The position numbers and the translations under genes were made by a program. Positions 8,727 through 29,836 of a stretch of DNA of 64,000 nucleotides are shown here, piece by piece. Origin of the DNA: a virus. Its lineage: Duplodnaviria > Caudoviricetes. Below the pieces are notes generated by a model. It had not been told where the DNA came from and did no database searches. It saw only the letters and a list, made by a program, of their open reading frames with translations. Positions within the stretch are counted from its first letter, which is position 1. Every line of letters begins with the position of its first letter. Location: the IMG/VR virus record IMGVR_UViG_3300017963_000189; one strand, written 5' to 3'.

Positions 8727-10370
8727 TTAGAATTTATCCATAATAAAGTCACTCATTATAGATGGCGCGTTTGTGTCGAAACCAACAACGTCGAGTGAGC
8801 TTCTATCCTTTGGATCAGCAATAGTGAAACCATTCGATGCCATACCAACTACAACTAACTTGACATCGTGACCCACTTTATGACGATAACGATCCATTGC
8901 TTCGCTTGGTTGGATATTTCCTGCCCAAGTTTCATTATCGGTATATACAAAAATCGCGTCAAAATCCTTGTTCATACCAGCGGCCCACAATGCTGGTAAA
9001 GCACAATCAGTTCCACCAAAATCTAACCTGCTAACGTAATTATCCACATCATTCAAACTCATTCTATCGTGTAACTTCAATTCCGTTACATTAGTTAACG
9101 CTTGACCAGAACCATACCAACCACCACCGGTAAATCCAATAATACCCCAGTTCTTTTCAGCTTTCATCGTTACCATAGCCATTGCGGACGATGCGGAACG
9201 ACAACTGATAAATGGAGCGTTTTGAATACCACTACCCATAGAACCAGATACATCCAAAGCAATCAAGATTCTCTTACCCGTAGACTCAATGTTCTTGAAT
9301 GCTTTGTAAAATCCTGCGTCCAAAGCGGAAACGATTTGTGGTACAACGTTCCAAGTATTAGACCCACGAAAACCACGTCCTGCTTCATAGGTTTTCAAAG
9401 CCATTAATAATTGAATAGGATGTACACGTGCTTTCTTTAACGCTTCATCATTAGTGATCTTGTCAACCACTAAGTTGATTTCGTCAAAGTTACCACTTTC
9501 CAAGATACCAACTTTGGATAAGTTACCTAAATTACGAATTAACGCAGTCATAGGCATTGTTGGTAACAACGCTTCGTATACTTTCTTTCCTAAGAATTGT
9601 GTAGGAATAGCTTCCCGTGGCAAGTTATATTCCTTAATCAAGTTCACAATTTCCTTTTCATTTTCGGCTTTCTTTGCTAACTCAAAACCATAAATCATTG
9701 GAATTTTCCTATACTTCTCAATGTCGCCATTGATTCCTTGAGTAATCCAATGGAATACCTTGTTCATATCTTCATTGACGGCTTGTGCATGAGACTTACG
9801 TAAAATGTCACGGTGACTCCACCCGTCACGAGATTGATACTTGACTACTTGATACGCCAACTTGTTGATGTCCTTGTCGGTGTACCACTTGGCGAATGCC
9901 TTACGTAATCCACGACCCCAACCACGCATCGAGTTTACGAACTCTGTGAAATGGAATAAATGAGTACCAATACGTGCTACTTTACTCAAGTTGTCCAAAG
10001 CGTACTTCTTAGCTTCGTCAGTTCCATAGGAAGCAACCATCGCTAATACGAATAACGCTGGATCATTATTAGGTGCACGACCCTCTAAAGAAATCTCAAC
10101 TACACGATTTACAACTTCAATGCCATCTTCCTTGATTAACTTTTCAATGTTCTTAGCATTCTTCTTAGTTAACTTTTGCGCGGATGCGTAATAAGTTGGT
10201 TGATCGCTACCCAATACTAAGAAACGATTTAACTTATCCCACTTGTCCAACTTAAATGAGACGCCACCGCCATAATTCTTAGCCATATCTTTCTTACGAC
10301 CCTTGATTTTTTGGTTTTGTGGAGTTGCTACCTTAGTAGACTTGTTTAAAGTTTTGGTATAATTTTGCAT
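8727..10370 (-). CDS. rsr: Ro60/Rsr TROVE-domain RNA-binding protein with vWA domain
   Basis: FLVLGS..TYY, SRDGWSHRDIL, PMTALIRNL, IALDVSGSM, GGTDCALP, YTDNETWAG, FTIADP; start MQNYT at 10370 after AGGAGG. Confidence 0.95.
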   Translation of the reverse strand: MQNYTKTLNKSTKVATPQNQKIKGRKKDMAKNYGGGVSFKLDKWDKLNRFLVLGSDQPTYYASAQKLTKKNAKNIEKLIKEDGIEVVNRVVEISLEGRAPNNDPALFVLAMVASYGTDEAKKYALDNLSKVARIGTHLFHFTEFVNSMRGWGRGLRKAFAKWYTDKDINKLAYQVVKYQSRDGWSHRDILRKSHAQAVNEDMNKVFHWITQGINGDIEKYRKIPMIYGFELAKKAENEKEIVNLIKEYNLPREAIPTQFLGKKVYEALLPTMPMTALIRNLGNLSKVGILESGNFDEINLVVDKITNDEALKKARVHPIQLLMALKTYEAGRGFRGSNTWNVVPQIVSALDAGFYKAFKNIESTGKRILIALDVSGSMGSGIQNAPFISCRSASSAMAMVTMKAEKNWGIIGFTGGGWYGSGQALTNVTELKLHDRMSLNDVDNYVSRLDFGGTDCALPALWAAGMNKDFDAIFVYTDNETWAGNIQPSEAMDRYRHKVGHDVKLVVVGMASNGFTIADPKDRSSLDVVGFDTNAPSIMSDFIMDKF

Positions 10371-10410
10371 GATTCGACCCTCCTGTTTAAAGGTAAATGT
10401 TATATAAACT

Positions 10411-10439
10411 AAAAAACCCGACAAGATATTTGTCGGGTT
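10411..10439 (-). terminator. Intrinsic terminator between Y-like RNA and rsr start
   Basis: AACCCGACAA-N5-TTGTCGGGTT followed by T-run. Confidence 0.75.
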
Positions 10440-10459
10440 ACTATTGTAAACAAAATATC

Positions 10460-10523
10460 TTGGATAAAAAGTTGTTGATGTTATTTTTACGTGTGATCGC
10501 GATAATCATCAACTACGACCCAA
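10460..10523 (-). ncRNA. Y RNA-like RNA A (64 nt)
   Basis: TTGGGT-CGT-AGTTGATGA-TTATC ... CATCAAC ... TTTT-ATCCAA; adjacent to rsr. Confidence 0.7.
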
Positions 10524-10594
10524 ATTATGTCTGAGATTGTAGGTTTTACAATCTCGTTACTGTTTGTACACATGGTACATCAGCTAAAATATAA

Positions 10595-10916
10595 AAAATT
10601 GGCGGGATTCGCATCTACCCGCAAGCGTTCATTCAGACTTGAATTATTCGAGCATGTCGGTTAACAACCGTCGTTATTAACCTTATGACAGGAAGAACCT
10701 ATCTATTTATCTTCCAACGTCCACTAGCAGTAGCTCTATTGCCAATTATAATGGGGATTTTAGCAGACGAACCATTGATATGTTTTTTTCAACCCCAAGA
10801 GTTGATCCCACTCCCATATCGACAGTCTCTTATTCTCACTGAACTCGCAACCGACTCCCAGAACTTTTCAGTCTGGGCTATCGTACCTTACTCACCTGCA
10901 TGAGTTATTCAGTCAC
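10595..10916 (-). ncRNA. Unidentified ~320-nt structured RNA
   Basis: Non-coding; multiple hairpins (ACTCA/TGAGT, CCCAGAC/GTTCTGGG, GGAAGA/TCTTCC); 5' GACTGAAT can pair with 3' ATTCAAGTC; preceded by boxA-like site. Confidence 0.55.
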
Positions 10917-10920
10917 AAAA

Positions 10921-10932
10921 TTTTCAAAGATC
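10921..10932 (-). promoter_or_regulatory. boxA-like antitermination element (GATCTTTGAAAA)
   Basis: Resembles rrn boxA; precedes ncRNA. Confidence 0.45.
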
Positions 10933-10941
10933 AAAATAAAA

Positions 10942-11030
10942 TGATGGATAAAGGTGGCTAACGAGATTGACGCGCGTCACGTCCTGCGTTTTTTTCGATT
11001 AAAAGATAACGTTAAACCGACGACCCATCA
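10942..11030 (-). ncRNA. Y RNA-like RNA B (89 nt)
   Basis: TGATGGGT-CGT-CGGTTTAACG-TTATC ... CGTTAGCC-ACCTTT-ATCCATCA. Confidence 0.7.
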
Positions 11031-11058
11031 AGTCCTGTATCAATCAGGACTTGTTTAG

Positions 11059-11132
11059 TAGCGGGGGCTGGATTTGAACCAGCGACCTCCGGGATATGAA
11101 CCCGACGAGCTACCAGACTGCTCCACCCCGCA
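11059..11132 (-). tRNA. trnfM: tRNA-fMet(CAT)
   Basis: Initiator-type body, 1:72 mismatch, GGG/CCC anticodon stem. Confidence 0.95.
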
Positions 11133-11155
11133 ATACAATATGTTATATATACTTA

Positions 11156-11183
11156 TATACTATTCAACTAAATAAAAGTTCCA
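11156..11183 (-). promoter_or_regulatory. Putative alternative-sigma promoter TGGAAC-N16-AGTATA
   Basis: Directly upstream of tRNA-fMet / Y-like RNA B. Confidence 0.5.
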
Positions 11184-11200
11184 TTTTTCTCAAAAAAAAA

Positions 11201-11440
11201 TTTAGGATAAGGAACGACCAGAGAGAGTTGATTTTTCCGTGAAACTATCACGTCTTTTTAACGTTGTTGTTAAAGACTCTCAACGGGGCTTCTTAAACTT
11301 GCTCCCACACAAGAAACTCTAAGACCGCGAAAACTTTCTTCGGTTAAGATTTTACGACGCGGCTAGCAGATCGAGTTTACAATCTACCTTTCATCCTTTT
11401 AGAATTATCTGTAAGGTAACTCTGCATCAACGACCCTAAA
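11201..11440 (-). ncRNA. Y RNA-like RNA C (240 nt, large internal domain)
   Basis: TTTAGGGT-CGT-TGATGCAGAG-TTACC ... CTCTGGTCG-TTCCTT-ATCCTAAA. Confidence 0.65.
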
Positions 11441-11452
11441 AGTTGAGAAAAA

Positions 11453-11464
11453 TTTTCAAAGAAC
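11453..11464 (-). promoter_or_regulatory. boxA-like element (GTTCTTTGAAAA)
   Basis: 12 nt upstream of Y-like RNA C. Confidence 0.45.
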
Positions 11465-29067: not shown

Positions 29068-29070
29068 TAG

Positions 29071-29141
29071 CAAGGGCGACAGGAATCGAACCCGCCACAC
29101 CAGGATTTGGAGTCCCGGTCGTCACCTTGACATACGCCCCT
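29071..29141 (-). tRNA. trnW: tRNA-Trp(CCA)
   Basis: Cloverleaf, loop CTCCAAA, G73. Confidence 0.88.
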
Positions 29142-29149
29142 ATAATTTG

Positions 29150-29232
29150 TACCGACACTCGGATTCGAACCGAGACGGGATTTCTCCCACTCGCTTTTGA
29201 AACGAGCGTGTCTACCATTCCACCATATCGGC
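29150..29232 (-). tRNA. trnL: tRNA-Leu(CAA)
   Basis: Type II cloverleaf. Confidence 0.92.
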
Positions 29233-29235
29233 ATA

Positions 29236-29339
29236 ATGTCAAGGATTTTCACTACACAAAAGTTGACATATCTATGTAGTAAAGGCGTTTTACGTTTGTC
29301 GGTCTAAGTCAACCTCGACCTTTCCCACGACCTTGACGT
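29236..29339 (-). ncRNA. Structured RNA, possible Y-like variant with pseudoknot
   Basis: Terminal stem GTCAAGG/CCTTGAC followed by T-CGT; GTTGAC/GTCAAC crosses ACTACAT/GTGTAGT. Confidence 0.45.
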
Positions 29340-29346
29340 ACCTTAG

Positions 29347-29429
29347 TAGCACTGGAGAGATTCGAACTCTCATGTATGTTTCAACCGCCGGGTTTAAGCC
29401 GACTGCGTATGCCATTCCGCCACAGTGCC
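29347..29429 (-). tRNA. trnL: tRNA-Leu(TAA)
   Basis: Type II cloverleaf. Confidence 0.92.
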
Positions 29430-29439
29430 ATATATTTTG

Positions 29440-29512
29440 TAGCACCACCCGGATTCGAACCGAGATCTGTGGGGCGAAAACCCACTATCCTAAACCATTA
29501 GACGATGATGCC
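29440..29512 (-). tRNA. trnE: tRNA-Glu(TTC)
   Basis: Cloverleaf. Confidence 0.9.
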
Positions 29513-29517
29513 ATATA

Positions 29518-29601
29518 ATGAGCAAATAGTTGTCAAGGAATAACCCCGAAGGGCTATTGGATTCGAACCAATTTAACCGATAACCTTAACATTCGGCTCA
29601 T
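29518..29601 (-). ncRNA. YrlA-like Y RNA F with T arm and UUCG-closed acceptor-like stem
   Basis: ATGAGC-CGA-ATGTTAAGG-TTATC, ATTGG-TTCGAAT-CCAAT, AGCCC-TTCG-GGGTT, CCTTGACA-ACTATTT-GCTCAT. Confidence 0.8.
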
Positions 29602-29604
29602 TTG

Positions 29605-29679
29605 TCGGGATAGACGGATTCGAACCGCCGATCCCATGCTCCCAAAGCATGTGCGTTAGCCAGACTACGCTATATCCCG
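29605..29679 (-). tRNA. trnP: tRNA-Pro(TGG)
   Basis: Cloverleaf. Confidence 0.93.
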
Positions 29680-29686
29680 ATAAAAG

Positions 29687-29758
29687 TCTGAGCGGCTGGG
29701 CTCGAACCAGCGCGTTCCCGGTTCCAAGCCGGGGTTCTTCCAACTGAACTACGCCCAG
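29687..29758 (-). tRNA. trnP: tRNA-Pro(TGG)
   Basis: Cloverleaf, loop CTTGGAA. Confidence 0.85.
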
Positions 29759-29764
29759 ATAATA

Positions 29765-29836
29765 AAACGAACAAGAGTGACCAACGAGTTTTGTTCTTTT
29801 TGACAGGAAAGATAATCGTCAATCTTCGGCTCGTTT
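29765..29836 (-). ncRNA. Y RNA-like RNA G (72 nt)
   Basis: AAACGAGC-CGA-AGATTGACGA-TTATC ... TCGTTGGT-CACTCTT-GTTCGTTT. Confidence 0.75.

Follow-up and report, generated by a model that had tools for sequence, protein, structure and literature searches.

The question raised by this locus is which RNAs a phage-encoded Ro60 protein might have at its disposal. The DNA analyzed, a window of 64,000 nucleotides, comes from a jumbo phage that has not been cultured, whose own contig extends up to 309 kb and whose genome is AT-rich (35% G+C). The original prediction that it contains an unambiguous Ro60 gene stands: the product matches Pfam TROVE (2.5e-39) and vWA_Ro60 (2.7e-56) and, by sequence, the PDB entries for RO60 (9nen, 5e-115), D. 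radiodurans Rsr (2nvo, 1e-114), and X. laevis Ro60 (1yvp, 3e-106). At least 42 tRNAs share the minus strand with this gene, rsr, and with all seven RNA loci originally read as its Y-like partners; Thg1-like and NUDIX genes also lie in the vicinity of rsr. We consider it likely that the phage combines its canonical Ro60 with at least nine Y-type RNAs, in which one conserved docking module, by which Ro60 would bind, is joined to varied payloads.

Table 1. Features of the rsr locus and the distant tRNA array, in window coordinates
Feature	Position	Strand	Evidence
rsr, Ro60 orthologue (547 aa, P0001)	8727..10370	-	Pfam and PDB matches
Intrinsic terminator-like hairpin and U run, between c1 and rsr	10415..10439	-	terminator scan: 10 pairs, U tail
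Y-like RNA c1, 66 nt	10459..10524	-	R2 E 2.4e-11
Structured RNA of ~337 nt between c2 and c1, conserved	10593..10929	-	homologues and predicted pairs
Y-like RNA c2, 89 nt	10942..11030	-	R2 E 5.9e-14
tRNA-Met(CAT), within rsr-proximal RNA cluster	11058..11132	-	ARAGORN; Rfam tRNA 60 bits
Y-like RNA c3, 240 nt	11201..11440	-	descriptor scan; R2 only E 1.5
perm-a, tRNA-like RNA	25486..25605	-	Rfam tRNA 41.9 bits and sequence reading
Y-like RNA c4, 119 nt	27275..27393	-	R2 E 3.9e-05 and fold
perm-b, tRNA-like RNA, 196 nt	27394..27589	-	fold and permuted-pattern scan
Y-like RNA c5, 79 nt, between tRNA-Trp and tRNA-Ile	28990..29068	-	R2 E 3.5e-07
Y-like RNA c6, 86 nt, between tRNA-Pro and tRNA-Glu	29517..29602	-	R2 E 2.2e-06
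Y-like RNA c7, 72 nt, between tRNA-Gly and tRNA-Pro	29765..29836	-	R2 E 1.7e-08
Candidate miniature RNase P RNA	47279..47481	-	Rfam RNaseP_bact_a 50.7 bits, E 1e-14

The seven RNAs were found within 1-2 nt of where they had been placed, on the minus strand and with the layout claimed for them. In all seven, a stem 1 of 7-8 bp ends in G[G/A]G[U/C] and is followed by unpaired CG[A/U], helix 2 of 7-10 bp runs directly into UUA[U/C]C, and the 5' end of the RNA pairs with its 3' end to close the module; stem sequences vary among the copies while pairing is retained. The bulge proposed opposite the CGN is present, measuring 6-8 nt with UU at its end in every copy, but it is not pyrimidine-rich throughout (AAUACUU and ACACUU occur). 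Literal GNCGAA occurs in c5-c7 only, as the three predicted copies of GCCGAA; c4 has GUCGAU, and c1-c3 have GUCGU. Scored with filters off, the covariance model proposed for the seven RNAs, here R2, recovers six of them at E 6e-14 to 4e-5 but c3 only weakly because of its 190-nt insert, and nothing else in the 64-kb window falls below E 1. As described originally, three copies (c1-c3) lie just upstream of rsr, on the same strand at 90-1070 nt and within ~4 kb, and four (c4-c7) stand among tRNAs on the rsr strand, 16.9-19.5 kb away, beginning 1 nt after the preceding tRNA and ending 3-6 nt before the following one.

What the module encloses differs from RNA to RNA, from simple loops, hairpins, and T-arm-like elements to a 190-nt domain. 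Near rsr, c1 has the layout UUUGGGU-CGU-A-GUUGAUG..AUUAUC .. CAUCAAC-AACUUUUU-AUCCAAG, and its seven orthologues show covarying pairs in proximal helix 2 and stem 1. A conserved GACG..CGUC hairpin is the payload of c2, which has a bulged U within helix 2 and compensatory changes at 11 of 29 pairs among five orthologues. In c3 the same closing module surrounds a ~190-nt payload, with a U9 run after it; six orthologues preserve both stem 1 and helix 2, and two of the helix-2 pairs show compensatory changes. Among the array copies, c4 joins GGGU-CGA and a 10-bp helix 2 to three hairpins, one of them long and another T-arm-like, and tRNA-Phe begins 5 nt beyond its end. The GAGC-CGA-A type is represented by c5, which begins 1 nt after the upstream tRNA and ends 3 nt before the next, and a similar copy lies among the tRNAs of the relative G002 (L176 391-478). 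The payload of c6 is a canonical T arm (AUUGG-UUCGAAU-CCAAU) with a UUCG hairpin, and in its orthologue (L176 562-649) the T arm is retained and the hairpin covaries; c7-like copies occur at L176 243-306 and L177(-) 18150-18213.

The prediction of at least seven RNAs was right because two more copies, both conserved in relatives, carry the helix in circularly permuted form within a tRNA-like body, where the module takes the position of the anticodon arm. In perm-a the permuted module (25529-25574) runs from the helix 2 return strand through the bulge GUUUUU, GUCCU-AAC-AGGGC, CGC, and helix 2 to UUAUC. This RNA has a long insert relative to the Rfam tRNA model, whose gathering score of 29 it exceeds, but receives no ARAGORN call; it is alone in having a full tRNA body, with a topology permuted relative to YrlA. 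In its G001 orthologue (L178, about 1955-2084, minus), stem 1 (CGGGU/AUCCG) and helix 2 covary. An acceptor-like stem and a T arm (GUUGG-UUCGAUU-CCAAC) are present in perm-b; T-arm-like hairpins are likewise found in c4 and c6. In the permuted module of perm-b (27516-27557), GCGA caps stem 1, with CGA and helix 2 following in that order. The G002 homologue of this RNA (L176, about 920-1165) shows compensatory changes both in helix 2 and in the acceptor stem. The YUAY position after helix 2 reads UUAUC or UUACC in c1-c7 and perm-a, and AGAAUC in perm-b.

The rsr-proximal copies share their non-coding block with the 337-nt RNA, homologues of which lie upstream of rsr in all close relatives. It has 71 predicted pairs with compensatory changes at 40, and RNA-library contigs of relatives span it. 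Its match to Rfam manA (RF01745) is weak (20.1 bits, E 0.014, below the gathering score of 55.2) and aligns only a 5' part, GUGACUGAAUAA..UAAGG, and a 3' part, GGGUA..AAUCCC, with a 227-nt insert between them. One locus, L001, also has tRNA-Met(CAT), located there after c2, and by eye an equivalent of the terminator-like hairpin between c1 and rsr.

How do these RNAs relate to known Y RNAs? The suggested search with Rfam Y_RNA and YrlA models matched none of the copies, even when hits up to E 10 were admitted, and the sbRNA model gave no match within the window; in a distant locus, L061, the sbRNA model matches just upstream of rsr, above its gathering score. Mycobacteriophage ET08, used as a positive control for YrlA, itself scored only 37 bits, short of the gathering score of 69, and one of its three RNAs carries the Rfam YrlA core. 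Since R2 finds no match in the ET08 Y RNAs, the link to characterized Y RNAs is one of architecture and short motifs, with no scored homology. By eye, the three ET08 RNAs lie upstream of the Ro gene and show a stem-CGA-helix-GUUAYC strand and a bulge-stem strand; with these three, and six tandem matches in the metagenomic Ro60 locus L051, the expectation of usually one or two RNAs per locus was too low. Human Y1 has a 5' strand GGUC-C-GA..GUUAUC and a 3' strand CACUU-GACU, which c4 parallels with GGGU-C-GA..GUUACC and ACACUU-ACCC. Metazoan Y RNAs (RF00019) and nematode sbRNAs (RF01656) likewise have a terminal stem, a conserved bulged C, which is the primary Ro60 site (PMC4030889), and a variable effector loop, but metazoan Y RNAs are single Pol III genes, whereas the genes here stand in bacterial-type polycistronic arrays. 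GNCGAA and YUAY are published Y RNA features (Chen 2014, PMC4201824). Judged by analogy, the module is the arrangement of the known Ro60-binding helix of Y RNAs: a stem, a bulged C with G-N facing an invariant UU, an asymmetric loop, helix 2, and UUAYC.

The closest parallels are bacterial and phage YrlA and YrlB (Rfam RF02553, PMC4201824). Both sets are encoded upstream of the Ro60 gene and in its orientation, with several RNAs per locus, and share an end-paired G-N-C-G-A-type stem, a second helix followed by YUAY, a return-strand bulge, and some T-arm-like elements; cotranscription with tRNAs is also known there, as in the Yrn2-tRNA-Yrn1 precursor of D. radiodurans (Chen 2014, PMC4201824). 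Unlike YrlA and YrlB, however, the end-closed copies here are without the full T-plus-D tRNA-like domain, the copies number nine rather than two or three, two place a permuted docking helix within a tRNA body, and four belong to a tRNA array at a distance of 17-19.5 kb from rsr. Nearly all bacterial and phage Y RNAs lie within 4 kb of rsr (Chen 2014, PMC4201824), and c4-c7 and both permuted copies, at 15-19.5 kb, fall beyond the ~4-kb neighborhood criterion of that study. M. smegmatis YrlA undergoes RNase P cleavage and receives a CCA tail (Chen et al. 2014, PMC4201824); the processed two-piece molecule has its tRNA-like ends in the acceptor stem and its Ro site at the opposite end, a topology that perm-a and perm-b are predicted to encode directly, by a permuted gene rather than by loop cleavage. 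Thermus phage phiLo similarly has a phage Ro60 with upstream Yrl1 and Yrl2, which were recognized by a terminal stem around a CGAA-containing bulge; the available text of PMC12135203 reports experimental demonstration of Ro60-Yrl binding and of a ternary complex with host PNPase, and it describes two RNAs and neither tRNA-array copies nor permuted forms. The phiLo Ro60 is only distantly related to ours (PDB 9kop, E 6e-5, versus 1e-114 for Rsr). Phage Ro60/Y-RNA pairs are already known; the nine-copy number and the tRNA-array layout are not.

Related jumbo phages retain rsr-proximal as well as tRNA-array copies, and in G001 and G002 some copies adjoin rsr with others 13-19 kb off among tRNAs. 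Of 153 distant Ro60 loci, 68 carry R2 matches with E<0.01, a total of 101, and every match is on the rsr strand, an agreement that owes partly to the co-orientation of phage genes. The reading as Ro60-associated Y-type RNAs is well supported by synteny, covariation, conservation, and association with Ro60 loci, along with ET08 and the published features. The original interpretation is borne out in part, computationally, as regards Ro60-associated Y-type RNAs with a shared docking helix and different payloads; the functions it suggested, tRNA quality control or anti-defence decoys, are conjectural.

The RNAs could be real and share a protein-binding helix and yet serve mainly another partner, either host Rsr or a phage protein such as the conserved, uncharacterized 533-aa neighbor, or their chief role could be as decoys or sponges, host tRNA-targeting nucleases being one possible target. 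A conserved uncharacterized gene pair comes after rsr both in the window and among relatives, and nuclease substrates could be mimicked by the tRNA-like payloads and by the permuted forms with their tRNA bodies. We nevertheless regard this as quite unlikely: the conserved features of the module are those of the Ro60 site, it accompanies Ro60 across loci whose other neighbors vary, and no recognizable RNA-binding family was found in the 533-aa protein. For D. radiodurans Yrn2, deletion of rsr has been found to cost the RNA its stability. The module might also be a processing or stability element of the phage tRNA and noncoding RNA transcripts, a punctuation hairpin or degenerate tRNA remnant that RNases read and whose proximity to rsr is incidental. 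Four copies do occupy tRNA positions in the array with tRNA-like spacing, several payloads are T-arm-like, and a spurious association is conceivable because tRNA arrays surround many of the Ro60 loci themselves. This explanation strikes us as very unlikely, given that c1-c3 and their orthologues lie directly upstream of rsr with one tRNA nearby only, that the module has published Ro60-site features and is not tRNA-shaped, and that in 767 kb of pattern-picked control viral DNA the three R2 matches fell in two contigs, both encoding TROVE.

The strict 5' motif occurs eight times in the 64-kb window, all on the minus strand, versus 0.27 expected. The eighth occurrence (45224-45244) is attributed to chance because it falls within an ORF, lacks a convincing 3' partner, and gets no score from the covariance model. 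The covariation claimed originally is also seen across 23 aligned matches, which score 0.43, a value reached by 0 of 500 shuffles, versus at most 0.16 for slid partners; double changes occur at 13 of 15 pairs, counted in alignments that had been fitted to the model. Chance, composition, or recent duplication of neutral sequence is effectively refuted as a source of the similarity: simple hairpins are common in an AT-rich genome and one strict-motif occurrence is clearly chance, but stems differ in sequence yet keep their pairing between copies, each copy persists, bearing compensatory changes, among orthologues at 60-87% Ro60 identity, and E-values reach 6e-14.

For a phage Ro60 with a family of Y-type RNAs, a mechanism can be proposed. 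The Ro60 ring would bind each of the nine RNAs through the module. Array copies may be cotranscribed with tRNAs and freed by tRNA end processing, with RNase P acting on the next tRNA and 3' trimming on the previous one; the candidate RNase P RNA, which falls below the gathering score of 100 and matches the full model span with large deletions, could process the tRNA/Y-RNA array. During infection, each payload would link Ro60 to its own partner or substrate for the surveillance, repair, or decay of RNA; partners could include a host exoribonuclease such as PNPase and damaged or misfolded tRNAs. A bolder and, in our estimate, unlikely version is a self-contained Ro60 RNA-handling kit of at least nine interchangeable adaptors, including tRNA-bodied permuted Y RNAs, together with its own miniature RNase P RNA and the manA-like 337-nt RNA, in which adaptors would bring Ro60, along with an exonuclease or repair enzyme that it recruits, to particular damaged tRNAs, or else shield the tRNA pool from host anticodon nucleases. 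Permuted Y RNAs would then be matured, and perhaps CCA-tailed, like tRNAs, and the 337-nt RNA may be circular. If such a kit exists, a phage adaptor library would steer Ro60 to particular damaged tRNAs or protect the phage tRNA pool.

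The RNAs at seven loci in the window share one structured module, as the original prediction had held, and this module is conserved among related phages and associated with Ro60. Read on the minus strand, each of them (c1 to c3 upstream of rsr, the Ro60 orthologue gene, and c4 to c7 in the tRNA array) opens with a stem 1 of 7 to 8 bp whose last bases are GGGU or GAGC, followed by C-G-N and 0 to 2 spacer bases, a helix 2 of 7 to 10 bp that carries a bulged base in c2 and c3, and then UUAUC or UUACC. After a payload of variable length (20 to 190 nt), the 3' side returns through the second strand of helix 2, a bulge of 6 to 8 nt always terminated by UU, and the second strand of stem 1. 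Minimum-energy folds recovered this shape in all seven RNAs, and a strict form of the 5' motif matched the window eight times, always on the minus strand, against 0.27 matches expected. The eighth match (45224-45244) falls within an ORF (44971-45435) and lacks both a proper 3' partner and a score with the covariance model R2; it was set aside as chance. Because the G-A of the CGA copies can pair with the UU of the bulge, these copies may present a single bulged C, the same as the classical Ro60 site (PMC4030889).

Features of the window discussed in the text
Feature	Coordinates	Strand	Remarks
SNF2 helicase gene	2-1369	(-)	downstream of rsr
NUDIX hydrolase gene	1646-2089	(-)	downstream of rsr
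Thg1-like tRNA-His guanylyltransferase	2498-3289	(-)	PHROG 5.7e-74; downstream of rsr
rsr (Ro60)	8727-10370	(-)	
c1	10459-10524	(-)	upstream of rsr
Conserved structured RNA, ~337 nt	10593-10929	(-)	between c2 and c1; every close relative has it upstream of rsr
c2	10942-11030	(-)	upstream of rsr
c3	11201-11440	(-)	upstream of rsr
perm-a	25486-25605		permuted module
c4 to c7	27275-29836	(-)	in tRNA array
perm-b	27394-27589		permuted module, 196 nt
Candidate miniature RNase P RNA, 203 nt	47279-47481	(-)	Rfam RNaseP_bact_a 50.7 bits, E 1e-14; below gathering score 100

When all paralogues were aligned with MAFFT, their 3' halves were misplaced, and covariance models were bootstrapped instead, R1 from six sequences and R2 rebuilt from 23 matches. 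With filters off, R2 found c2, c1, c7, c5, c6, and c4 in the 64-kb window at E values of 6e-14 to 4e-5 and nothing further below E 1; c3 scored only E 1.5, which is not significant, because of its 190-nt insert. Pairing was said to be kept despite differing stem sequences, and the data bear this out: in the 23-sequence alignment, which follows the model it was fitted to and is partly out of register in helix 2, the covariation score was 0.43, a value reached by 0 of 500 shuffles, compared with 0.06 to 0.16 for slid partners, and double changes occurred at 13 of 15 pairs. The imperfect helix-2 register of this alignment (A5) stems from the bulged base present in c2 and c3 and absent from the others, so the covariation counts are conservative for helix 2.

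Orthologues show the same compensatory pattern. Metagenomic contigs encoding a Ro60 of 60 to 89% identity each have a noncoding gap of 0.9 to 1.8 kb upstream of rsr, and the order of elements in relative L001 is that of the window, except that tRNA-Met is displaced. Compensatory changes were found at 11 of 29 pairs among c2 orthologues and at 4 of 16 among those of c1, whose proximal helix 2 occurs as GUU/AAC, GAAU/AUUC, GUUU/GAAC, UUGU/ACAA, and GAU/AUC; the c3 orthologues (six sequences) keep the module, and two of their helix-2 pairs show double changes. Searches over the whole records of two relatives located module copies adjoining rsr and further copies 13 to 19 kb off, and three copies in the relative G002 lie between tRNAs, one of them a c6 orthologue that retains the T arm and whose hairpin covaries. 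The distal copies are thus conserved genes and not debris.

The count of at least seven copies can be extended to nine by two in which the module is circularly permuted, both with homologues in relatives. Rfam scores perm-a as a tRNA (41.9 bits), with the module at the position of the anticodon arm and in reverse order: helix-2 return strand, bulge ending in UU, stem 1 capped by AAC, CGC, helix 2, and UUAUC. Its orthologue in the related record G001 differs in stem 1 (CGGGU/AUCCG, loop AUAA) and also in helix 2, which still pairs. In perm-b the second permuted module, its stem 1 capped by GCGA, is combined with an acceptor-like stem and a T arm, and the homologue of perm-b in G002 has compensatory changes. 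Both equal YrlA, a bacterial and phage Y RNA type, in overall shape, but their chain break sits at the tRNA acceptor end, a form that the YrlA of M. smegmatis reaches only after RNase P cleavage. Elsewhere in the array, five minus-strand gaps without ORFs have long folds (25356-25485, 26872-27035, 29991-30310, 31180-31365, and 31440-31739), several with canonical T-arm hairpins and acceptor-like stems, such as CCGCGCG..CGCGCGG at ~31280-31356. These may be additional nonstandard tRNA-like RNAs; the Y module was found in none of the five.

The protein encoded by rsr has TROVE and Ro60-vWA domains, and its sequence matches to solved Ro60/Rsr structures range from 1e-106 to 5e-115. It is a canonical Ro60, much nearer to the cellular proteins than is the protein of Thermus phage phiLo (6e-5). 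It is recorded on a 309-kb contig, and the source of the window is an uncultured jumbo phage; no close relative was found in the GenBank set of deposited phages, and the sequence is present in two metagenome DNA runs, one from seawater and one from sediment. The window has a G+C content of 35%, every gene between 7 and 32 kb is on the minus strand, and so are all of the tRNAs (42 by ARAGORN, 40 by Rfam). One of these (20933-21004, minus strand) has the anticodon CUA of an amber suppressor, labeled Pyl by ARAGORN, and is conserved in L001 (5834-5909). The ORFs of the window stay open when read with code 11, so other parts of the genome could be where a stop codon is recoded, if any is. The ribosome-binding region of rsr (10371-10390, minus strand) reads AGGAGGGUCGAAUCAUG both here and in locus L009 (~2987-3010) and so includes GGGUCGA, the 5' motif of the Y type; L001 does not conserve it. 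The motif could be an autoregulation site or a coincidence.

The Thg1-like, NUDIX, and SNF2 genes also occur as a set in relative L002, and relatives L004 and L006 add genes for RNase T, RNA ligase, and HSP20 upstream. A 533-amino-acid neighbor of rsr had no Pfam, PHROG, or informative Atlas match. We conjecture from the Thg1-like and NUDIX genes near rsr, together with the RNA ligase and RNase T of relatives, a role in tRNA repair or surveillance.

Also conserved is the longer RNA between c2 and c1, for which RNAalifold predicted 71 pairs, 40 with compensatory changes. Its closing stem covaries (GAAAAUU/AAUUUUU in the window versus CCUCG/CGAGG in relatives), and its likeness to Rfam manA is confined to the two ends (20 bits). 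RNA-library contigs from three studies, representing relatives 90 to 95% alike, cover this RNA alone. Among them is a rotated 340-nt copy in which 10929 is joined to 10593, which hints that the RNA is circular or present as a tandem copy. Over 10400-11500 these contigs leave c1, c2, and c3 uncovered, which is uninformative on expression, as short RNAs are lost and the phage is absent from the runs. Among the RNA runs listed, none contained 27275-27589.

Association of the module with Ro60 extends to distant Ro60 loci. Among 153 loci whose encoded Ro60 is only 43 to 53% identical to that of the window, 68 contained R2 matches at E<0.01 (101 in total), all sharing the strand of rsr and almost always upstream of it, including six in tandem directly upstream of rsr in locus L051 (1705-2265). 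Most of these distant loci lie within tRNA arrays. A control set of 80 viral loci (767 kb), picked by a 14-base pattern whose scan was unspecific and served as control only, yielded three matches on two contigs, both of which encode TROVE. One is the complete 436-kb genome G004, where four matches (315-323 kb) all lie at least 130 kb from rsr. In locus L061, which is of phage or bacterial origin, an RNA immediately upstream of rsr (2863-2941) matches the Rfam nematode stem-bulge model ceN72-3_ceN74-2, a family of nematode Y RNA homologues, at 47.4 bits (gathering score, 38).

Conserved Ro60-Y RNA particles occur in organisms as far apart as bacteria and humans, and phage systems of this kind are already known. 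Published criteria for bacterial and phage Y RNAs are GNCGAA, YUAY, and a location near rsr on the same strand (Chen 2014, PMC4201824), and phiLo has Yrls with a CGAA bulge that bind the phage Ro60 (PMC12135203). Against Y RNA membership, the Rfam search proposed originally matched none of the candidates to Y_RNA or YrlA, at gathering score across the whole window or at E up to 10 in 10300-11700 and 24800-32300, and R2 in turn had no match in the locus of mycobacteriophage ET08. There, the Rfam YrlA model marks a tRNA-like core; by eye, three Y-like RNAs, and not just this YrlA, lie upstream of the Ro gene (L179, 4540-4920). Each reads ..GGC-CGA-..-GUUAYC, with CACCAU or CCACAU as the bulge that precedes the return stem, a layout shared with the window RNAs. 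Computational evidence gives good support to reading the window RNAs as an expanded Ro60-Y RNA set. What is new is their dispersal through a tRNA array, their number, the permuted forms with a tRNA body, and a divergence beyond current Rfam models; a literature search of incomplete coverage turned up no paper that places Y RNAs in the tRNA arrays of phages.

Ro60 would bind the module, and RNase P with tRNA 3' trimming would release the array copies, given that they start 1 nt past the preceding tRNA and stop 3 to 6 nt short of the next. D. radiodurans offers a precedent in its Yrn2-tRNA-Yrn1 precursor (Chen 2014, PMC4201824). The candidate RNase P RNA has P1/P4-type ends and aligned GAGGAA and ACAGAA tracts, along with large deletions. 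The rsr-proximal cluster has a terminator-like hairpin before rsr and a promoter-like repeat, AAATGGAACTTTT, with only two exact copies in the window (11174-11186 and 11534-11546, minus strand). Both are set in comparable AT-rich sequence, the first upstream of tRNA-Met and c2 and the second upstream of c3, and they may serve the cluster as phage promoters. The diversity of payloads suggests that they could tether Ro60 to different partners.

To our knowledge, the role of the variable part of Y RNAs has been established in only a few cases, and this phage clade provides one Ro60 with nine natural candidate adaptors, each having a conserved orthologue set. Two points were absent from the literature searched: Y RNA genes far from rsr, and a docking helix permuted into a tRNA body. 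Because such genes sit far off as tRNA-like units in tRNA arrays, searches of rsr neighborhoods undercount Y RNAs. Their distant placement, together with the permuted docking helix, may link phage tRNA arrays to RNA surveillance or counter-defense.
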